DNA from: Perkinsus olseni
Taxonomy: Eukaryota
Direction: 5' to 3'
DNA length: 58,332 nt
NCBI GenBank assembly: GCA_013115125.1
Contig: JABANN010000168.1
Coordinates: forward strand, 1-58,332
Below, in pieces: positions 4,815-58,332 of the stretch (positions within the stretch are counted from its first letter, which is position 1; the number at the start of each line of letters is the position of its first letter). Made by a program: the position numbers and the translations under genes. The notes under the pieces were generated by a model. It made no database searches and was not told the DNA's origin. It saw only the letters and a program-made list of their open reading frames with translations.

Positions 4815-4943
4815 CCGTACCTCTCGTGCGATGAATCATCGCCGATGATGAGCTATTACACCATCATAATCATCTTTCTTTTATTGTATCGCCCCCACGC
4901 AGCATACTGAATGTCAGTTCGTGATAGCCAGTATGCCGTTCTG

Positions 4944-5202
4944 TCATCTTCTTGTTCTGTCACCATGTGTCATCGTCCGCTCATCTTCTTGTTCTGTCAC
5001 CATGTGTCATCGCCCCCTCATTTTCTTGTTCTGTCACCATGTGTCATCGCCCCCTCATTTTCTTGTTCTGTCACCATGTGTCATCGTTCCCTCATCTTCT
5101 TGTTCTGACATCATGTGTCATCGTTCCCTCATCTTCTTGATCTGTCATCATGTGTTATCGTTCCCTCATCTTCTTGATCTGTCATCATATGTTATCGTCT
5201 TT
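4944..5202. repeat. 37-bp minisatellite, ~7 copies
   Basis: Unit TCATCTTCTTGTTCTGTCACCATGTGTCATCGYYCCC starts at 4944, 4981, 5018, 5055, 5092, 5129 and 5166, with no spacers. Confidence 0.95.
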
Positions 5203-6407
5203 TCCACTCCGAGTGGCCTACTGGAGTAGAGAACTTTAGCAGCATGCCTTCAGTAGTCCGCCTATCGAGAACGCTACTCTAGTTTGCGTTTGAAATGAAT
5301 CATCCATGGTGGATGTTGCAGTAGTAACATCATGTTACTTACAATTACAATGCAGTAATATCAAGGACATCAAGGCTAAATAATCTATCGCTAGAAAGAC
5401 AACATATCTGGCAGTGGAATACCAGACACGATATTGAGAAATCGCAAGACAGCGAGATGATATTTCTATAATCGCGTACTTCTTACAGATGCGTCTGCGA
5501 GTGAATGTTACTCAAGGCAGACGCCGCTTAATGTCGACTCTTTGAAATCCTTACTCTCCTCAAGATGGGCCGCTCACCTCCACACTGAGCTAACGCACAT
5601 CATGCCATGTGGGGTCCATGCTCCATCGATGCGGGACCATCATCAACTTCAACTTCGGGACCAACTTCGACCGATACCCACATACCGATTACCTGTCGAA
5701 AGAGTAGAGTAACGTTGGGGGAGGAGTCACAGGAGGCCCACGGAGGGTGGTACCTGCCAGACGATAATATCACCAGTGACCGGCCTTGAGCTGCTATTTC
5801 TCTGACATTTTCGATGTCATCCAGCGGGACGACTGCGTCTGCAGGAGTGTCTCCGACTCGGAGACTCCGAAATCAGTTGCTCGAAAATTCCCGAACAGGT
5901 ATTCCCACATAGTCAGGAGTTCTGCCGACCTTTCGAACCCGACGAGGGTAAACCGAATAGAGCGGCCTTCGTCTCTCCACAGTTCAGCAATGCGGCTGAA
6001 TATGATGAGTGCGCCCGGTAACTGCTTAGTGATCATACTGGTTGATAGCAGCCCATGAGCACCAAGAAGAACTCTTGTTTCCTGAGCAAGGCCACTAAAA
6101 CTAAGACCAAGAGTCAGAATGCAGGTCCCCATACCGTCGAAGATGGCATGGTATTATCATAATACTATTATGGCAGGATGAGACGCGTCTTGCAGCTCTC
6201 GCAATAGAGCTAAGAGGGCCTGTTAGACCCTGCTAGTACCGCGCGCGTGTTTCCTTCGCGATTATCGCGATGCGAGTTGTGCTGAGTTGTCTTCATCACT
6301 GATGAATCATCAGGAATAGCTTCTTTTGCTCTCTAACGGAACTGTCCCAAGCCGGGGCACCCGTACGAACACAAGACGTCGGGAGCCTTGCATGCCCAAC
6401 TTCTTTC

Positions 6408-12889: not shown

Positions 12890-14756
12890 TTAGCCTCCGA
12901 GTGAGGGAGCTCGAAGGCTGTAGAAGCTCGAGCTCGAAGCAAGCCGCTGATCTGGTAGGCTCCACAATGGCGATGGCTCGTAGGCCGCATCGTAATCCTC
13001 CCCGCCAGCGACCTCAGGCCCCAATGGTGCGTTCGATGGCACTGATCGGGTCACGTCTGCGGACAGTGACCGAGACGGCTTGAGCATGCGAGTCACTGCC
13101 GGGAAAGCCATTGGCACCACCTGTAGTAATTTCGTACTCTCCTGACCGGCCTCCTCAACCCATACAATAACCAATCTCGTAGTAACACTGCAAGCTGCCG
13201 CCGAGAGATCACTGGACAGATCGCTCTCCCGTACAGGAGCGAAATCGAGAGCCGCCACTCTCAGGCCCTGCCTGGGCGCTGGGACAGTGCCGAGTAGGTC
13301 CACATTGGAGGCCCCCTGCCCCTCAATGACTTGCGATAGAGGCGGAAGAACTTCATAAACCCTGACTTCAGAACCACCGTCGCTCACCGCTAGCCTCTGA
13401 CCGGTCGATGGGCAGAGGGCGCTGTATGTGGCAGAGATAAGATCGCCACTGAAGTCGTAGACTTTGGGTAGAGTCGGGGTCTGTCCGCCAAAGACCCACG
13501 ATGCTGAGCCGACACCCCATTTGCCCTCACCTTCATCGAGACGAGGCCATATAAGCTCCGCCAGTCTATTACCCGAAGACACGTAGAGTCTTTCAGAATC
13601 CAACGGCCAGTGGAGCCTCCCCGTGCTAGAGTTCACACGGCCCGATGTGGCCTGGACGACAGTACAGCACTCTCCTGTAGAGACGTCCCAGGTTCGAATC
13701 TCCCCATTGGCATATCGCACCGCCAACAAATCCGAACAGGACTTCGCTGAGCACCAGGCCATAGAAGTGACCTCAGCAGTCCTCAGGCGCCTCAGAACAA
13801 GTGGGGTCGCTGCTGACGTTCCCACTGTAGCCGACTCCCAAACCAGCACTACGTTCGAGTACCCCACTGCTAGCAGAGAGCCATCCCTCGGTGAGTACTC
13901 TATGACAGAGGGCGCGAGAGGTAGACTGCGATTCGCTGTAATCTGCCAATCTTCGTGGATGCCGGAGAGAGAGGTGACGATGAAACCGGATACAGTACCG
14001 AGAGCTATCGTAAGAGGGCAAGGCGACGGAGCGAAGGCCACACAGCTTCCTGACAGGGAAGCTACTGTCTTTCTCTTAAGGAATGACCGACGAACTAGTA
14101 GTAGCGAGCGATTCGCCCTTACCCGTGAGTCGAGGAGTCTTCCTCGGCAAGGCCAAGCTGAAGACTTTGTGCTGGCTCCTGTCGATCAAGGTAACCTCTC
14201 CTTTCGGGGAGACCACAACACTGTAGGGTGCAGACGGATGCGAACAGCAATGCCATTGAGGGCTCATGGCTTCCGGTGATATCTACAACACACTTTGCGA
14301 TACCATTAAAGCACCAAATCTTACCCGAGGGGCTCTCAAAAACCACGACGTAACGGCGTAGTCGGCAGAGAGTTGGTCCAGCGTGCTCCAGGGGGCCAGC
14401 ACGTCATTGGCAAGGAACTGCAGGGGTCCCATAAGCGGCGCCGAGAGATTTTTCTCAACTACCTCTCCAACAGTTCCCCATTGTCGCAGTCTCTCCAACA
14501 GTCCAACAGCCCTTCCCTCAGCGGCGGTGTTAGTGGCAGCGAGCGTGGATGCGCTCAAGGAAGGAAGTGCCCCACCGTGCTCGTCCGCGGTCAGTGATGC
14601 TAGCCAAGCCTCAGCACTACAGCTACTTGCCTGACACTCACAGGAGAATCAACGAGCACTCTGAGGGCCGAGCAGGCAGTACTCCGACGGAGTCCAAGTC
14701 GTGACGTATTCTTCCCTCACTCTCGTAGCTGAGCTGGTCCTTCTGGCAACCTCCAT
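12890..14756 (-). CDS. WD40 beta-propeller protein, aladin (AAAS nucleoporin)-like; 5' exons uncertain
   Basis: A 383-aa terminal ORF with WD-like blades (LLAVGYSNVVLVWE; VTSMAWC...GEIRTWDVSTGECCTV), plus upstream exons at 14076-14756. Confidence 0.6.
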
Positions 14757-29354: not shown

Positions 29355-29868
29355 TCTTCGCTCCACCAGCATGTTGAAGCTTGCGTGGCTCATGTATATA
29401 TGACTTCTCTAGAGGGAGCCACCGCAGTCTAGCGGTCGGAGGGAGTCTTGCGTTGGGTTATCGACAGCGCAATGGGTGATGTTAATGGCTGTATGCCCTA
29501 GCTCGGGTCCAAGCTGTGATAGCTATTCTCGGAAGCTAAGTTGGACTCACGAGTTTGGAGCGAATTGGTCATAGGGACAGCGGAATTGTGTAGGTCCCGA
29601 AGCTTCGGTGGCCAGGCCGGCCCTCCGGGTTTTCGTTCGCTCGCATGAGGGGTTTGCCTTATCTTCGTGACCCCCAGGTATAGCCTCGGGGAGTGCGTCT
29701 GCGAGCTCTTGCCTGCCGCCTCGGTCACACTGTGTTGATCCACAGCGGGACCGGCAAGATTCGGCCTTTTCTCTCTCGAGCCCTCGCAAGTGTAAGTTAG
29801 CATTGCTCTGTCTTAGCGTTGGTTATTCCGACTTTGTAACACCTTATTTCCCTGACTGACCTTCGCTC

Positions 29869-31726
29869 ATGGCTGCTTCCAATGAACCCGTGGTGAATAC
29901 CGTGTCCGCTGGCGAGGCCGGCGCGTCCGAGAAGAACAAATTCGTGACCGTCACCAAGGGCGCCTACACCCGGATGGTCATCATCGGTATCGGCTATTTG
30001 TTCCCCATCTCTGGTGAGCCATCGAATCCTGTTTCCGCTGGTACAGGACTGCTTCTTTTCTTCAGCTATCTGGGCCGCCTTTGACTACTGGAAGACTCTC
30101 TTTCCCGATAAGAACATCGAGTTCGTGGTCACCTGCTTGTACCAGTTCGGCTCCGTGATGACGGTTCTGATTCTCTCCCTGGGCAAGTCCATGAAGTTCC
30201 ACCGCCGGATCCTTGGCGGCTTCAGCGGACAGTTCTGCTGCTTGTTCGTCATCTTCCTCTTCCGTTGGTTGGGCCTCCCCGTTAACGTGGTCTACGGCAT
30301 CCTGCTCGGCCTGGTGTAAGTACCCTAGTCGCTTCGGGAAGTGGTTGTTGGAGTAGTGGACTGGTGAGGGCGGTCGTTACAGGTTCTTGATGTCCGTCGT
30401 CACCGGTTTCTTGGACTCGGCTCTTCTAGCTCTCAACTCTCAATACTCGCCCAAGATGCAGGAGGCTCTCCAGATCGGCATCGGTACGTCCCTCTGTGTG
30501 CAGGTTCGCCTTGTCGATCACTACTGGTTTCCTTGATTCCGCTTTATTCGCACTCAACTCGCAATATTCGCCTAAGATGCAAGAAGCGCTTCAGATCGGC
30601 ATTGGTACGCCTTTACTGTGGCGCGGAGTGGGCCGTCACTCAGGCGTTTTCTTGACTCGGATCAGAGTGTTTGAGTTCTCTTGTTTCTTGCAGGCTTCTC
30701 CACCTTCGTGTCCGTCGTCTACAGAGATATCACCAAGCTCATTTCGACGTCCCAGGCTAACTCAACATCTATCTACTTCTTGGCGGCCCTCGCAACAGTA
30801 AGCACAGCTGGGCAGCGACCGCGTTACGTTCCTCAATCCCGCTCCTCTGCAGGTGATTGTGTGCATCTCGGCTTACGTGTCCCTCATGAGGATGCCTATC
30901 TCGGCCCACATCCACGAGGAGGATGCCAGCTCTCGTCAGCAGCCTCTATTAGGTAGGCTCGTCGCGGTGCTGTCAATTTGCAAAGACGTATCCTTCGTTG
31001 ATTCTCAGAGAAGAAAGAAGAGGAGGAAGTTAACATTTGGAAGGTTCTCCGCAGAGTGTGGTTCAACGAGCTCGTGATCTTCCTCAACTTCCTCTTGACT
31101 ACCGCTTGCTACCCTGCTGTAAGTCTATGGCCTCTGTCGTCAAACGCCTTGGACCTCTCCCGTTCATGATCAGATCCTTACGGCCATCCCCTGTTACACT
31201 CTAACGGTCCTCGCCCCTGCTCACTGGTACCAGACTATTCTGTTGTCCGTCTTCACAGTCTTCGACGTCATCGCTCGATTCTGTGTCCGTCATCGCGGCC
31301 CTCTCTATTACGGGAACATCTGGATCACTGCGGCTGTTCGTGAGTGTGCTGCTGTCGTTTGTCAGCCTGACGGTAGATGTGGTTCTTCTCAGGTATGTGT
31401 ATCTTCCCTCTGGTCGTCTTGTGCGCCACGGGCACTTTCCGCAACGACTGGTTCTCCATGTTCATTGTCGCTCTCTTCGGCTTCGGTAACGGCTTCGCTG
31501 GCAGTCTCTCTTTGATCACTATCAACGAGATTCCCGGTCTTTCCGGCCCCGAGCTCAAGGCGACCGGTCGTTTCTCTGCTGTGGCGGTGAACTCTGGTGA
31601 GATGAGGGCTCTTCGAGCAGCTCACGGCGGGGATATGCTTTCGTCTAATTGTTCGTCTCCTCCTCAGGTCTCTGTGTCGGTGGTTTCGTAGCCATGGGTC
31701 TTGGCGTCTGGCTCGGATTGGCATAA
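29869..31726 (+). CDS. Equilibrative nucleoside transporter (ENT/SLC29), multi-exon, with a duplicated alternative exon
   Basis: IGIGYLFP...AAFDYW, QALQIG-like TM5 entry, NFLLTTACYPA, FTVFDVIAR and FGFGNGF motifs with multiple hydrophobic segments; ends GLGVWLGLA*. Confidence 0.92.
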
Positions 31727-31997: not shown

Positions 31998-33040
31998 CTA
32001 CTGCAATCTCGTCAAGGGTGAGACACGAGTTTTCCATCGTGTCCTTAACTTCAGCTCAGTTTCGATCACAATCTTGGCACACTGTAGGCGGTAGGTGTCG
32101 GCTTTGTCCAGTGGCCGAAGTCCCTTCATGGCCTTGTCGTTAGCCTCCAAGCACACCTGGGCCATTTTATCATTCACTATTCCTCTGGAGGAAAGGTAAC
32201 CCTTCAAGTCATCCGGTATGATCTTGTCGTCGTCCACATCCACAGCGAAAGCGGCATCAAAGACTTCGATCGTTATGTAATGGTCGTGAGGGTTGTTGAG
32301 CTCAACGAACCCATGGGTTAACAAAAGCATCTCATTGGTGTACATGCCGTAGTTATTGAAAATCTCCTCACCCTTTTTCACCGCCCTCTCGGCCAGCATC
32401 TGGAAACCTTCTTCAACTTCCCGGACTCTCGTATGCCATGCAGTTGAGGAGTGGTTGAACTGATCCGCGAGAGGGATTACGCAGAGCCCGCAGACGTCCG
32501 ATTCGAACGCTCGTGACATCATAACCTCTACGGCCCACCGCACTGCCGCTTTAGAAGAACCGGGGCAGAGCTCAGCCACGCTGTCCACGACCTCTAAGGA
32601 GAGCTGATGCATCTCCCACACTGTGGTGCCTTCCAGACAGGCAAGCTCACCGGCTGACCACTCGAGAGGGTGGTCGAACTCGGCAGGCAAACTCTGCAAA
32701 TAGTCGTGGAAGGGCGAATCGGGGTCAGACTTGTACTTCACCAAGGAGGCGGCCAGCATCACCTGTGGTTCATACAGACCGTGAACTCCAGAAGGCGTTA
32801 CGCAGGAAGTGTGCGGAACATAGAGAAGCCGCTCGCCCTGACGAATATCGGCCGTTGCCGTGCAGCCGATCATACCGTTGGTGGCATGGAACCAGGAGAC
32901 GGCCGGGTGAAGTTGTATGCCTGATTTACAAAGATACCGGAAAGTCCGTTGATCACCTAACTACCGTGTTGACTGGCCCATCGCTCGGCTAGCGGCCCGC
33001 GAGCTGCCCTCCGTTGCTCGTCATCTGGAGTGAGATCCAT
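31998..33040 (-). CDS. SET-domain protein-lysine methyltransferase (Rubisco LSMT/SETD6-like), 2 exons
   Basis: MDLTPDD...WASQH/GIQLHP...; ATADIRQGERLLYVP, YLQSLP, SRAF, IPLADQFNHS, GEEIFNNYG, LLLTHGFV. Confidence 0.9.
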
Positions 33041-33122
33041 CAACTACTGTAGCGACCCATCGTTCCGTACTAAGGCAACGCAACATCTCGCGGACGTAAG
33101 GAATACGTGCATTTTACAAACG

Positions 33123-34242
33123 CTAATCACTGGCATCTTCACTAGAGGGGCTCTTCTCTCGATCAACGTCATCGGCACTGCGCACGGCACAGCCTTCAAA
33201 AGCTGTGAACACCGCTGCATTATAGCTCTCCATTCCGGGGTAAACTGACGCTCTCCTCGCCCGGGACCTTTTCGTCGGTTCAGTATCATCCTCACTCGTC
33301 ATCTCGCGAGAGCGCTTGGCCCCCTGCTTCACCGCTCCATTCTCATCGGCGCTATGCACCTCCTCAGAGACGACCGCAGGGGTACCCTGAGTCTCAGGTA
33401 CATCACTTGTTGCTGGTTGCTTTTCACCAGTAGAAGGTGTCAGATCGACGACGTAGAGGTCGGGGCCCACCGTCGTGACGCTGTGGTGATTCTCCTTAAA
33501 GCAGTGCATAGCCTTGGCATTCGCTATAGGGTCCCGAGATGGCTGCATCCAGATGAATTTCCGTGCATTATTCTGCTTTATCAAGTTGCGGATGGCGGCC
33601 AGGAGAAGATCGACGTCGGCTTCCCTGTAGATGAGGTCAGCGCCGAGAACCACGTCACAGTCGCCCAACTCGGCCGAGTCTTCCCCGGGCCAGGCCAGCG
33701 GCTTGGCCTGCAGGTCACATGTCCACGTCAGAACCGAATTAGCGCCGATGTTCCGCTTGGTCACATCGTTCAGCACCTCCGGCAGATCAGTGAGAGTCAC
33801 TTTACTGGCGTCAGCGGCAGCACATGCAAGACCACCAAGGCCACATCCGGAACCGAGCTCAATCACCCGTTTGCCGGAGACATCCAGGAGACTACCGCTG
33901 CCACTTTCGTCGATCAAACGGGAAGCGAGCTCAGCTGAGGATGGCCATACAGTAACACCCGTGTTGAGGGGATCCGCCTCTTCTTGGTCGAGCCCTTCTG
34001 ACGGGTTCGTGGCGGACAGCGAAGGGGCCCTGACAACGAGGACTGCGAGAGGGCCCAAAGGCGGCCAATGGTGTAGTACCTCTGATGGAGCATGATAATG
34101 CTGTTGCCGTGCTGGAATTGATACGGTTCTATGAACCTCGCTCGGAAGTCCGAGGAGCCAGCGGAGTCGGTGTTAGATGCAATTCTGAATTATACTACAC
34201 CTACCGAGAGGACCATGGCCGAGCGTCAGGGGGGCCACTCAT
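33123..34242 (-). CDS. Class I SAM-dependent lysine methyltransferase (METTL21/Methyltransf_16 family); start approximate
   Basis: TGVTVWPSS, KRVIELGSGCGLGG, VTLTDLP, LAW and DVVLGADLIY motifs. Confidence 0.88.
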
Positions 34243-40332: not shown

Positions 40333-43300
40333 CTATCCCCAGCGGCACAGCTTGCACTCCCTCACTGTGGGGCTAGGGTTCATCTCGTCGGGCTCGGGTT
40401 GACAGCACTTGTCGTGGTAGGTGTGGCCACAGTCGAAGACGGTGACCTTGCCGGAGACGTTACTGTCGCCGACCAGTGCCTTCTGACAAGCTTGGCACAC
40501 GACCGAGCTCACGCTCAATGCCCGACTCTGCCGCGACACCAACCCAGAAAACAGCCGACTGGCGTCCCGTCGCGATATGTCTTCGGTGGATTCAGCGAGG
40601 GAGTAGGAGAAGCCGACACCGCCCAGTAGGCTGACCAGTGGCTTGCGCAAGGCATCGTCATCTACCCTTCTTCCCGGCCGCTTCCGCAGGAGCGTCTCGA
40701 TGGACTGACTAACCGGCACTAGGTCGAGTACACCGCCCTTACGCAGCAGCATTTGGGAGATCTTCTGGTCGTCACAGGCCATCGCCAAGCAGGGCATCCA
40801 GAGCTTGGAAATCTGCTCAGGTTGGAGTCTCTCGGCCCGCCTTAATGTGAAGTCTGCCGCCATGGAGACGAGCTCCAGTTTCTGTGATTCATCCTCAGTG
40901 CTCGACAGGGCGTCCAGGATCGTGGCAATAACGCCGTCATCGTCATCAGCCTTCTCATAGAGACAAAGGAGGCCCTGCGTGCTGGAGTACTTCTGGCAGA
41001 GTTCCCGTGCCTGGTCAACTGGTATCGCTCCGTCGGCGGCTCTGAGCAAGAACTTGGACACGCCTGACTGACGATCGGTGCGCAGGAGCAGCTCCAAGCC
41101 AGTCAAGGCGTGAGCGTGGTAAAATATTCTCCGACCGTTGGCGTCCTGCCAAGTGGAACTAGGGTTCAGTAAAGGCAACAAGAAGGCACAGTAAAGGTCG
41201 TCAGGGATCTCCCCCAGCTTCACGACGGGCTCGTTGGAGTCCTCCAACTCGAGCACGCCATCCATGAATAGACGTCCCGTCTCTGCTGGATTCAACTCTA
41301 TCAGCCTCTTCACCAGCTTCAGAGCGGCAGCGCGCACCCCTTGCCGAATGGCCGAGTCATCCGTACGTATAACATCTTCGAAGATATCCTCACTGAGCTG
41401 CGGTGTATCCAAATAGCAGCACAGCATCTCCTCATACTCTCCCAGGCAGTGGCCCAGTGCCCAGGCCTGGACAGACCGCATGCTCCTCGCGGACGCTTCC
41501 TTCACAAACTCAGTAACGTCTATCGACGCGCACTTGTCGTCCTCATAGATCCTCTCGAAGGCCACCTGGACTCGCTTCTCAGGGAAGGCCTGTAGCATGA
41601 CCTTCAGAACCTGCTGCCGGACCTCCTTCGGCACAATCGCTATGCCTCGGACTTGGCAAGCTTTGGCGATGAATAGATAGTAGCTGCGCAGTACTTCCTC
41701 CTCCTCGTCCTCGTTGCGGCCCGACCTCTCCGTCATCCGCACGCTGCACTTCTGGATACACTCCTCAGTGAGTGGCAAGCACTTGAAGAACTCCGTGGGC
41801 GAGACCTCGAGGAGCTCATCGAAGCAGCCAGGACTATCGTCAAATATCGCCCTAAGGAGATCGTTGATGGCTGTGGCGGGCGGCTTCGGCATGGCCGTCG
41901 GAGTCTCGAGCGGATACGCCTTCCCCGCCAGAGTGAAAGTAAGATACCCATACAGATGCTCCACGAGGGGCATGCTAGCGAGCTTCTCAGACACACCATC
42001 GCCCTCGGCCTGCGCCAGTCTCTTCTTAGCCCGCACTGCAGCGTCGACGAAAATTTGTAACGGAGTAGTGTAGTCACCGAAGGCCGCGTTATAGACATAC
42101 ACCAGAACCGACCAAAGGCCGAATTCCGTCGCCATGCGGGTCGTGAAATTGAGGTCGAGGCTTCCAGGGTTGACGCTTAGACAAAAGTCCTCTGCCGCCC
42201 GGCGTACCTCCACCGTGGGGTGCTTGGCAAGCTCGTCCCGGAATCTCGACAGTACGATGGCCACGACCTCCGAGTCCACGGTGCCGGGAGGAAGGACCCC
42301 CGACCGTAGCCTGGTCTCTACTACCTTCAGATAGACGTCCCGTACTGCCGCGCCGCAAGCCTCGCAGCGAGCGAAGACCACGCGATAAAGGAAATCCCAT
42401 AAGGCCATGCTAGCACAGGCGTCAACGGCCAAGGTCACTCGCTCTTGTACGGCCTCGAGGTCGTCGTCCTCGGGAAGATCGGAGAGGTACACTCGAAGGA
42501 GGGCCTCCATCTCCATCGGGTTCGGCCGGGAGGCGTCGGCCAGCTGGGGAAGACCGCCACCACCTATACCAGACACAATCGTGATGGCCGCCTTCATCTG
42601 GTGGCCATTCAAAAGCCGCTTGATCTCATCCTGCCAGTACCCCACGGTGACTTCCGTGAAGTGGTGAGTGTCCGCCCCTGCCTGGTACCCCGGGAGGATA
42701 ACCGTAGGGCCATTGACCGCTATAAGGTCAGGGCAGTAAGTCCCTAACAGTCTATGCCGATAGACGACGTTCCCAGAGCCCCGGAGCATCGTCGTGCGAG
42801 GTCGGTTCGTCTGAACTAGAATAACCTCACGCGAGCTGGACTCGTGCGCTGGCGCCACTACTGCGGCAAGAAGGCCACCGCCGACGCAACGGAGGGCTCG
42901 GAAGCCGGTCGTGAAATCCTTCGAGGGCAGAAGGACCTGTCCGACCACATCGAACACCGCCAGGTCTGTCCGGGGCCTGAGCATGTGTATGGTCCTGCCC
43001 ACCCCTACGCACAGCGTTACAGGATCCGCGCACCAACAGACGCACAGAGATTCTGATTCCGACAGAGGCATTTCAAAAACGAGCCTCGGGGTCGGGGCCA
43101 TGCTGATCACCGTCACCACCTCGGAAGATACCATGGCCACCAAGCCCGCATCGGCCATTTCAGATCTTCGCAGAGCCGCCATAGCCTTCACCGGCTTTTC
43201 CTTCTTCAACAACAACTTCTTCTCGCACGTCATAGTCACCAAAAACGTATTGAAGGTGAGCATGTAGCAGCGGCCAAGTTCATCAGCGGTGACGATATTT

Positions 43301-43734
43301 TGCCGTCCCGCAGCCCCCCAAAAGACTCCGGCCGTCACTGCGCTGTTCTGCATGTCCCGGACCAATTTTTGTAGTACATAGGTTGTGGCGTCGAAGAGCG
43401 CTACGGACCCCGAGGCGTACCCTACTACCAGTCCTGACCCGTCCGCTGACCAATCCACGCTCCGGGCTGGTCCTGCATCCTCCGCTGGGGGCCGTATCGT
43501 TCGAACTCGCTGCGCTCCGAGCTCGTGGGATACGACGATGGTGTGACCGTGCTGAGTGCCGAGGGCCACCTTAGGGCCTTGACACGCAGCGATGCACGTG
43601 AAGCGGAACGTCGATACGCCCGTGCGGACGCCTTTGACGGCAGCTCTTATCGGTAACTCCACAGAGGAGTAGTCCAGAGAGGTCGATGGCTTAGCTGCTG
43701 GAGTGGAAGGTGTTGGCGCGGGCGAGGCCGTCAT
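40333..43734 (-). CDS. VPS8: Vacuolar protein sorting 8 (CORVET subunit), intronless, 1133 aa
   Basis: N-terminal beta-propeller (LVVGYASGSVALFD), Vps8 core LDLNFTTRMATEFGLWSVLVYVYNAAFGDYTTPL, and a C-terminal RING-H2 CQAC...CGHTYHDKC...CKLC. Confidence 0.85.
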   Translation of the reverse strand: MTASPAPTPSTPAAKPSTSLDYSSVELPIRAAVKGVRTGVSTFRFTCIAACQGPKVALGTQHGHTIVVSHELGAQRVRTIRPPAEDAGPARSVDWSADGSGLVVGYASGSVALFDATTYVLQKLVRDMQNSAVTAGVFWGAAGRQNIVTADELGRCYMLTFNTFLVTMTCEKKLLLKKEKPVKAMAALRRSEMADAGLVAMVSSEVVTVISMAPTPRLVFEMPLSESESLCVCWCADPVTLCVGVGRTIHMLRPRTDLAVFDVVGQVLLPSKDFTTGFRALRCVGGGLLAAVVAPAHESSSREVILVQTNRPRTTMLRGSGNVVYRHRLLGTYCPDLIAVNGPTVILPGYQAGADTHHFTEVTVGYWQDEIKRLLNGHQMKAAITIVSGIGGGGLPQLADASRPNPMEMEALLRVYLSDLPEDDDLEAVQERVTLAVDACASMALWDFLYRVVFARCEACGAAVRDVYLKVVETRLRSGVLPPGTVDSEVVAIVLSRFRDELAKHPTVEVRRAAEDFCLSVNPGSLDLNFTTRMATEFGLWSVLVYVYNAAFGDYTTPLQIFVDAAVRAKKRLAQAEGDGVSEKLASMPLVEHLYGYLTFTLAGKAYPLETPTAMPKPPATAINDLLRAIFDDSPGCFDELLEVSPTEFFKCLPLTEECIQKCSVRMTERSGRNEDEEEEVLRSYYLFIAKACQVRGIAIVPKEVRQQVLKVMLQAFPEKRVQVAFERIYEDDKCASIDVTEFVKEASARSMRSVQAWALGHCLGEYEEMLCCYLDTPQLSEDIFEDVIRTDDSAIRQGVRAAALKLVKRLIELNPAETGRLFMDGVLELEDSNEPVVKLGEIPDDLYCAFLLPLLNPSSTWQDANGRRIFYHAHALTGLELLLRTDRQSGVSKFLLRAADGAIPVDQARELCQKYSSTQGLLCLYEKADDDDGVIATILDALSSTEDESQKLELVSMAADFTLRRAERLQPEQISKLWMPCLAMACDDQKISQMLLRKGGVLDLVPVSQSIETLLRKRPGRRVDDDALRKPLVSLLGGVGFSYSLAESTEDISRRDASRLFSGLVSRQSRALSVSSVVCQACQKALVGDSNVSGKVTVFDCGHTYHDKCCQPEPDEMNPSPTVRECKLCRWG

Positions 43735-44018
43735 ATGAAGAATTAAAGCAGCCCAAATACATGCCTACCCAGGAGTTAGACATTGATTTAACCCTATTCG
43801 TATCTTACATGCTTCAAGCTAAGATACTCCGCCCGCTGATACTACACACAACACTGATCGTCAATATTAGACAACATGACCAAGTCATGCATCCTGCCAT
43901 TGGGAGGATCTGGTGGGCCTGTCAGGCTCGCAACACAGCGAAATCGTAGTAAGTGTCTCGGGGAATCCCAGACGTAGAGCGTCCATTAGACGCAGCAAAA
44001 AATATGATTGGCAGATAC

Positions 44019-57392: not shown

Positions 57393-58332
57393 ATGACGGT
57401 GTCCCGTGTTTGGTATTCCCTGGCTTCCTTCGTGGCCGTCGTCGCCTACGACATGACTGCTGATTTCGCTCTTGACGTACACGACTCGATCAAGGAAAAG
57501 TTCAGCGAGGCAGCTGTGAGTCTCTTAATACGTCCTGCAGCAGGGCTCCGTACTTCGGTTCATATACACGCTGCTTTTTCAGAGGGAGTCAATGCTGGAG
57601 GTTCAGAAGCATCTGAGAGAAGTCCTGTCCCCTCTTCATCACATGGTCATCCCGGCTCCTGTTGCCTCTGGCGATCCGGTCTGCGTTGAGCTGAAGGACG
57701 CTGAAGGCGACGTCGTCCTGACTCAGTCGGCCCAAATCGATTATTGCGAACCATATGGAACTGATATGTGAGTTTGTGCTCGACCTCGCCTTGCCGCGCT
57801 CAACAAGGAGTCCGTGTCGTTGAGGAATTGTGTCATGATCCCTCAGGTCGTTCGTAGTGAAGATCGGCTCTGTAACGAAGACCCTCAACTTGCCTCCTTT
57901 CATCGACCCTACTGGAGGTTCTATCACTGTTCCTCGCTTCTTCTCCCACCTGTAAGTCACACGGTTGTGCGGGCGATTTCCAAGCAACTATTTCATCATA
58001 GTCGTTTACTCGCTGGCTCAGGTATAACGGCACCGACTGCGATGTGAGCAAGAAACTAGATGGTGGTCTCGCTGGAATCACGGAGGTGATTTCGGTGCAC
58101 GTGGAGAAGGATGTGTGCCCTGGCGATGACCCCGCGGTCCTCTGGCCCGCCGTGAAGACCACTAAGTCTAAGGAATCTCTACCGAAGCAGAAGGCTGAGT
58201 CCGCGGAGCCCGAGAAGGAAGAGGCCACGCCCGAGGGAGAAGAGGCCAAGCCCAAGAAGGAAGAGGCCAAGCCCAAGAAGGAAGAGGCCAAGCCCAAGAA
58301 GGAAGAGGCCAAGCTCAAGAAGGAAGAGGCCA
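57393..58332 (+). CDS. Paralogous secreted protein with a (KKEEAKP)n tail, incomplete at the window edge
   Basis: Signal peptide MTVSRVWYSLASFVAVVA; TADFALD and YCEPYGT motifs and intron positions matching the upstream gene. Confidence 0.7.
58212..58332 (+). repeat. 21-bp coding tandem repeat (KKEEAKP), at least 5 copies, running off the edge
   Basis: AAGAAGGAAGAGGCCAAGCCC units. Confidence 0.9.

Follow-up and report, generated by a model that had tools for sequence, protein, structure and literature searches.

A nine-exon gene for a predicted equilibrative nucleoside transporter (ENT) of the shellfish parasite Perkinsus olseni, carried on the + strand at positions 29869-31726 of a 58,332-nt stretch of contig JABANN010000168.1 (assembly GCA_013115125.1; the whole stretch is referred to here as the window), contains two adjacent, homologous exons, A and B. 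The tandem exon duplication is real and old, and the pair, as judged from its sequence, is a textbook candidate for mutually exclusive splicing. A serves as the default and is the sole form in assembled RNA, and B is either an alternative used rarely or conditionally or an exon that fell silent recently. The reading that we favor, with about an even chance of being right, is that the duplication is coupled to mutual exclusion by both spacer and frame, with A as the default and B most likely a minor or conditional alternative.

Exons A and B are each 101 nt long, are preceded by CAG and followed by GTACG, are entered in phase 2 and left in phase 1, and are separated by a 20-nt spacer (GTACGTCCCTCTGTGTGCAG). 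They align with no indel and share 74/101 nucleotides; among the 33 complete codons, 13 are identical, 15 differ only synonymously, and 5 change the residue (28/33 residues shared), with the translations being FLMSVVTGFLDSALLALNSQYSPKMQEALQIGI(G) for A and FALSITTGFLDSALFALNSQYSPKMQEALQIGI(G) for B. An earlier note, made from the letters of this DNA, had described two 101-nt exons with these positions, splice sites, phases, and spacer, and with many synonymous but only five residue differences, and every descriptive item is reproduced here. The gene is organized as follows.

29815..29816, + strand: AG acceptor for spliced-leader trans-splicing; the mRNA body runs from about 29817, and the site lies 52 nt 5' of the ATG.
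29869..30013, + strand: ENT exon 1, with the ATG at 29869 (gene model; junction 30013>30066 in 4/4 RNA runs).
30066..30315, + strand: ENT exon 2, from the end of transmembrane helix 1 (TM1) to the first half of TM4 (gene model and RNA; 100% identity to the annotated P. olseni protein P0001).
30316..30382, + strand: intron of 67 nt upstream of exon A; its pyrimidine tract is the weakest in the gene (intron removed in 4/4 runs).
30383..30483, + strand: exon A, 101 nt, residues 133-166 (in all RNA and annotations examined).
30484..30503, + strand: spacer, 20 nt, in which the donor of A (GTACGT) directly adjoins the pyrimidine tract and CAG acceptor of B (from sequence).
30504..30604, + strand: exon B, 101 nt, in the same phase as A, with CAG|G and G|GTACG intact and no stop codon (from sequence; skipped in 4/4 runs).
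30605..30693, + strand: intron from B to the next exon, 89 nt, which in the A-form belongs to a 210-nt intron, 30484-30693 (gene model and RNA).
30694-30797, 30853-30952, 31009-31118, 31174-31339, 31393-31596, and 31668-31726, + strand: the six last ENT exons, the final one including the stop codon (all junctions in 4/4 runs).

A repeat finder recovers the pair as a 109-nt direct repeat with 121-nt spacing and 75% identity; Tandem Repeats Finder does not report it (two copies at 75%). No other exon-like tandem duplicate was found in the 58-kb window, where the remaining two repeat families are short-unit arrays of 37 and 21 nt. The spacer opens with ~15 letters similar to those that begin the intron after B, and its five closing letters are similar to the end of the intron before A; a tandem duplication of 121 nt whose breakpoints lay just outside the exon would be expected to leave such a remnant.

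Both the reading frame and the spacer set the two exons apart. With either A or B alone the mRNA has an open frame of 412 codons, whereas inclusion of both leads to a first stop at codon 235, skipping of both to a stop at codon 154, and retention of the spacer to a stop at codon 183; the frameshift that the earlier note had foreseen for joint inclusion is thus borne out. At 20 nt the spacer is far shorter than the confirmed introns of the gene (52-210 nt), as that note had also said; seven of the A-form introns are 52-71 nt long, and the one that skips B is the 210-nt intron. The acceptors also differ, with only 6/17 pyrimidines in the 17 nt before A, the poorest of the gene, compared with 11/17 before B and 10-14/17 before the other acceptors. 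The branch-point motif yTnAy is lacking in 5/8 confirmed introns and so cannot be used to place branch points here.

The A-form product of 412 amino acids (aa) is identical (100%) to P0001. P0001 matches Pfam PF01733 over residues 131-402 (E 1.7e-12; 47.8 bits, with a cut-off of 29.8), single exons being too short for scoring. Its AlphaFold (AF2) model (pLDDT 82.4, pTM 0.82) has 11 long helices (30-52, 66-87, 93-117, 121-150, 155-182, 186-212, 243-267, 285-310, 320-338, 344-371, and 377-408), and in a Foldseek search the top four matches are all human ENT1 (hENT1) entries, the best being 6ob6 (E 7e-14; TM 0.78/0.88), with PfENT1 next. A single-sequence search of solved structures with P0001 matched no solved relative, and a profile search of the same structures finds hENT1 at E 0.0015, carried by the C-terminal half. 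By family profile and predicted fold the gene is thus assigned to the equilibrative nucleoside transporters (SLC29; PF01733), in agreement with the nucleoside transporter of a parasite that the earlier note had proposed, and transport of nucleosides or nucleobases would be its predicted function. Records from P. olseni and P. chesapeaki name the protein 'Epsin-1, required for endocytosis and actin patch assembly', which is contradicted by the Pfam match, the fold, and the P. marinus records, where it is an equilibrative nucleoside transporter; the misnaming is an annotation error spread across several records.

Exon B looks to have been selected as coding sequence. The 27 differences between A and B are distributed 7/2/18 over codon positions 1/2/3, and by the Nei-Gojobori method pS, the proportion of synonymous differences, is 0.763 (saturated), and pN, the nonsynonymous equivalent, is 0.123, for a pN/pS of 0.16. 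A ratio of about 0.5 would be expected had B drifted neutrally since the duplication with A constrained, and since pN is about a sixth of an already saturated pS rather than half, B was constrained for most of its history. When 27 substitutions are scattered randomly on exon A, none of 100,000 trials gives five or fewer residue changes and no stop codon (mean, 16.9; minimum, 9). In an alignment of 29 homologues, which includes Perkinsus, Symbiodiniaceae, and environmental proteins, 18 columns of the exon are invariant, and B keeps 18/18. Two of the residues particular to B are found among these relatives (F147 in 2/29 and I137 in 5/29); the other three, A134, L135, and T138, are in 0/29, but their columns are variable. 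The proposal of the earlier note that both copies are under purifying selection agrees well with these patterns.

The duplication is also probably older than one split within the genus. No residue of the exon A peptide differs between the proteins of P. olseni, P. marinus, and P. chesapeaki that cover the exon. One P. marinus protein, P0002 (180 aa), is a truncated, mis-predicted model that reads past the donor of A into the spacer and B-like sequence, and threading of its 15-residue tail onto the P. olseni spacer and the beginning of B requires 10 mismatches and one additional codon (cost 13); none of 300 shuffled tails is as good (minimum cost 16). An equivalent layout, with a spacer of ~23 nt, is therefore probable in P. 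marinus, and the duplication would then probably be older than the divergence of P. olseni from P. marinus, a dating that comes from this threading and agrees with the saturated pS. A metagenome scan with protein alignment found 10 loci, of which 8 are cDNA-like contigs of distant relatives (41-50% identity) and 2 are genomic and dinoflagellate-like, and none is from Perkinsus; loci L005 and L008 are the same gene, as are L006 and L010. The two genomic loci, L009 and L010, have a single copy of the exon region, so the duplication is too young to be shared with those organisms. A degenerate pattern for NSQYSPKMQEALQIGIG gave 0 matches in the metagenome scan.

The exon codes for residues 133-166. 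In the AF2 model these run from the second half of TM4 (helix 121-150) through the TM4-TM5 loop into the start of TM5 (helix 155-182), and all five residue differences are in TM4. It includes the TM4 motif TGFLDSAL, and a weak profile alignment (3.0 bits for the N-terminal half) puts this motif on the hENT1 stretch FGAILQGSLF and the invariant Asp143 opposite the Gln of that stretch. In hENT1 this stretch holds Gly154, Gln158, and Ser160, which have been implicated in the binding of ligands and inhibitors. One of the five differences, L147F (L in A and F in B), would by helical periodicity lie on the same helix face as Asp143, and the other four on other faces; any structural effect of B is argued in this way, from the A-form model and helix periodicity.

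These features suggest how the pair could work. An old 121-nt tandem duplication would have copied the exon, from the second half of TM4 to the start of TM5, together with its splice sites, leaving two exons that could exclude each other both sterically, as a 20-nt spacer would be too short for removal as an intron in Perkinsus, and by frame, as inclusion of both or neither shifts it. A human survey (PMC5740500) gives a donor-to-branch-point distance of <50 bp as the criterion for steric interference, and lists this, frame incompatibility, and, as a third, competing RNA structures among the ways of enforcing mutual exclusion. With A once spliced in, its donor would be able to pair only with the acceptor at 30693; choice of B would require the donor at 30316 to pair with the acceptor of B (a 188-nt intron) rather than that of A (67 nt). 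A regulated choice is conceivable because the acceptor tract of A is the poorest of the gene and that of B is ordinary. B would then be kept as an intact, protein-constrained exon, most likely as a minor or a condition- or stage-specific alternative that changes five TM4 residues, including L147F. A bolder version, which we offer tentatively and consider less likely than not, is that Perkinsus switches the substrate-lining half of the ENT TM4 by mutually exclusive splicing, that the pair has been kept since before the P. olseni/P. marinus split, and that B is used in an unsampled stage or condition, such as the hypnospore or zoospore.

Several observations weigh against use of B, the foremost being from RNA. 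There are 20 runs holding the gene or part of it, and in 14 of these about half of the sampled words are present, as for an mRNA. Contigs were examined from four runs of four studies, two from cultured parasite (X7 and X10), with the same organism label as DNA runs that may be the source of the window, and two labelled as a second organism, presumably the host (X8 and X12). In 4/4 runs a single contig holds the whole mRNA with joints 30315>30383 and 30483>30694, and thus has A only and skips B, and all eight splice junctions of the A-form model are confirmed. The joints 30315>30504 and 30604>30694, and any A-B joint, are absent from the assembled contigs of the four runs, which drop rare variants and can show presence but not absence; an alternative branch of equal length may be just the kind of variant that an assembler collapses. 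Of the junctions that the earlier note had predicted, those of the A-form are therefore seen and, as it had expected, no contig joins A to B, but those of the B-form are not seen.

The only RNA cover of B is a 158-nt contig of X7 (30542-30699) at a depth of 2.25, compared with 234 for the mRNA, which is colinear with the genome, unspliced, and matches it with no difference at all. No other ENT intron is covered in X7 in a recomputed depth table, which makes genomic contamination unlikely, and the contig is best read as slight retention of the 210-nt intron or of the intron after B. In X7 there is no RNA cover of the spacer or of B up to its 38th nt, and in X10, X8, and X12 none of B at all, although this is not proof of absence. 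The other RNA-like runs (X9, X11, and X13-X20) hold 0.47-0.51 of the sampled words, close to the ~0.53 that our own arithmetic gives for an A-only mRNA, these being word counts and not alignments.

Annotations point the same way. All 11 annotated Perkinsus proteins that span the exon carry A, and B is in 0/15 proteins retrieved from P. olseni, P. marinus, and P. chesapeaki. A 40-aa in-frame translation from 30484 matches only A-form proteins in the protein collection, at 85%, with no B match above 85%, and there is no B match among its proteins of 22-70 aa; these negatives are weak, as the window's own 123-aa genomic open reading frame (ORF) with B is likewise absent and the collection seemingly holds annotated Perkinsus proteins only.

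Codon choice in B is also unlike that of the gene. A score resembling the codon adaptation index is 0.479 for B, 0.688 for A, and 0.60-0.86 for 33-codon windows of the remaining exons (seven stop-to-stop ORFs, taken as putative genes, served as a second codon-usage reference set), and B has a G+C content at third codon positions (GC3) of 0.55, below those of A (0.76) and the remainder of the gene (0.74). Amino acid constraint together with relaxed codon choice fits a rarely translated exon, and also one recently out of use. If the threading of the P0002 tail is exact over its 15 residues, its stop codon falls over the B-frame codon of the invariant Gly140, and that P. marinus copy of B may be damaged. 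As for the conservation in relatives that the earlier note had asked about, the A peptide is identical in three Perkinsus species, and for B there is probable B-like sequence in P. marinus, inferred from a 15-residue tail, with a possible change at Gly140. Lastly, there is no sign of competing RNA structures, as the interval 30316-30693 folds no better than its shuffles (z -0.05; 45/100 shuffles fold as well) and has no meaningful inverted repeats. That note had proposed two ENT isoforms that differ in the helix preceding TM5, and although the differences are indeed all in TM4, production of two isoforms is not supported so far, with A alone in the contigs of the four runs, which drop rare variants, and B in no annotated protein examined; the splice-level switch in purine salvage that the note had raised is so far conjecture.

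The strongest rival, which we rate only somewhat short of an even chance, is that B is silent, having once been used but now always being skipped in P. olseni as a young pseudo-exon within the 210-nt intron; removal of the normal-sized 67-nt intron first would leave the donor of A with the acceptor at 30693 as its only partner. Former use would account for the signature of selection, and the A-form junctions in all four runs and studies, the use of A in every annotation examined, the drift of B in codon usage and GC3 from the norm of the gene, and the possible loss of Gly140 in a P. marinus copy are all as expected of such an exon, with the low-depth unspliced contig across B being compatible with intron retention. 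However, B has suffered no stop, indel, or splice-site loss, it keeps all the invariant residues, and only 2/27 of its differences from A are at second codon positions, so that by our own estimate from pN and the saturated pS, neutral drift could account for no more than a short, recent part of the period since the exon was duplicated; moreover, the contigs are unable to show the absence of a minor isoform. The claim of two isoforms and that of a recently silenced exon are about evenly balanced.

A non-coding role as the cause of B's conservation, for instance as a splicing regulatory element or RNA structure in the long intron, is improbable; B does sit within an intron that is actually removed, but the substitutions follow the codon frame (7/2/18, with 15 synonymous and 5 non-synonymous codons), which is not expected of a non-coding element, and the unremarkable folding of 30316-30693 and its lack of notable inverted repeats argue against a structural role. 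That the duplication arose in assembly, for instance by the tandem merging of two haplotypes, is rejected with near certainty, for no supporting point was found (DNA runs with 98-100% of the words are possibly the source data and were not counted as independent), the copies differ at 27/101 positions in a mostly synonymous and not allele-like manner, the X7 contig comes from another study and matches 30542-30699 exactly and so places B and its downstream intron in independent data, and the P. marinus protein model reads through the homologous spacer and the start of B.

If B is used, as in the reading that we favor, one single-copy gene would yield two transporter proteins in a parasite that does commercial damage to shellfish. 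The helix in which the A and B forms would differ, TM4, is the one that presumably carries ligand- and inhibitor-contacting residues in human ENT1, and the pair would be a natural experiment on ENT specificity, as well as an instance of mutually exclusive splicing in a lineage where our literature searches found no report of it. Under the bolder version, no such pair would have been documented earlier in Perkinsozoa, and a purine-salvaging parasite would be altering the specificity of a transporter at the level of splicing. If B is silent, it would be an ordinary relic of exon duplication that stands out mainly for its slow decay. There is also a lesson for annotation, in that every gene model takes A and leaves B inside an intron.

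The ends of the transcript have features of their own. The X7 and X8 contigs have loose 5' letters (ATCTTGGCTCA and CTTGGCTCA) ahead of 29815, and because they agree with the 3' portion of PmaSL1, a published spliced leader of P. marinus with the sequence ACCGTAGCCATCTTGGCTCAAG (PMC3101222), the ENT mRNA is taken to be spliced-leader trans-spliced. At the other end, a 2593-nt X10 transcript contig extends beyond 31900, more than 1 kb past the ENT stop, toward a SET-domain ORF on the opposite strand (31998-32960), and reflects either a long 3' untranslated region or overlapping convergent transcripts merged by the assembler.

Elsewhere, the window has a G+C content of 48-60% and is eukaryotic in character. 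Long - strand ORFs at 12890-14185, 31998-34172, and 40333-43764 have WD40 propeller, SET, Methyltransf_16 lysine methyltransferase, and Vps8 domains and resemble ordinary housekeeping genes; nothing evident connects them with the transporter. The 37-nt array (4907-5239) has about nine copies, 63-100% identical to a reference copy, and the 21-nt tandem repeat (58186-58332) runs off the end of the window and would, if coding, specify a peptide repeat rich in Lys, Glu, Pro, and Ala.

Exons 2 and 3 of alpha-tropomyosin are an example of mutually exclusive exons, and the Perkinsus pair has many of the properties of mutually exclusive exon (MXE) pairs that arise by tandem duplication. As in the MXE pairs enforced by steric hindrance and/or frame incompatibility (PMC5740500), A and B are adjacent homologous exons of equal length and phase with GT-AG sites, their spacer would be too short to splice, and their length is not divisible by three, so that joint inclusion or double skipping breaks the frame; similar sequence, the same length, and the same frame are also the criteria of the MXE predictor given there (Hatje et al. 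2017). The Perkinsus case differs in that B is seen in no spliced transcript contig, in that the spacer is extreme at 20 nt, with the donor of A abutting the pyrimidine tract and acceptor of B, and in that the organism is a perkinsozoan protist with introns of 52-71 nt and spliced-leader trans-splicing. It also resembles the unannotated tandem exon duplicates of a second study (PMC9013439), detected by homology in introns, in being a duplicate inside an annotated intron that was missed by gene predictors; some such exons in animals are described there as expressed only in particular tissues. Those surveys are of human, fly, and worm, whereas the present one is a single case in a unicellular parasite, seen through RNA contigs only. 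Among ENTs, the protein shares PF01733 and the 11-helix fold with its best structural matches, human ENT1 (6ob6, 6ob7, and 8tzi) and Plasmodium falciparum ENT1 (7wn0), although identity to hENT1 is only 17-18% and the N-terminal half that contains the exon aligns at 3.0 bits. Among the matches listed in our literature search there was no report of mutually exclusive exons in Perkinsus, nor, as judged by title and the start of the abstract, of an alternative exon in TM4 of any ENT. A 2011 paper in Protist, cited in PMC3101222, reportedly deals with the pcna and cyclin genes of P. marinus, their introns, and their alternative splicing. By sequence criteria the A/B pair is a standard MXE candidate, set apart by an unusual organism and an unusually tight spacer.

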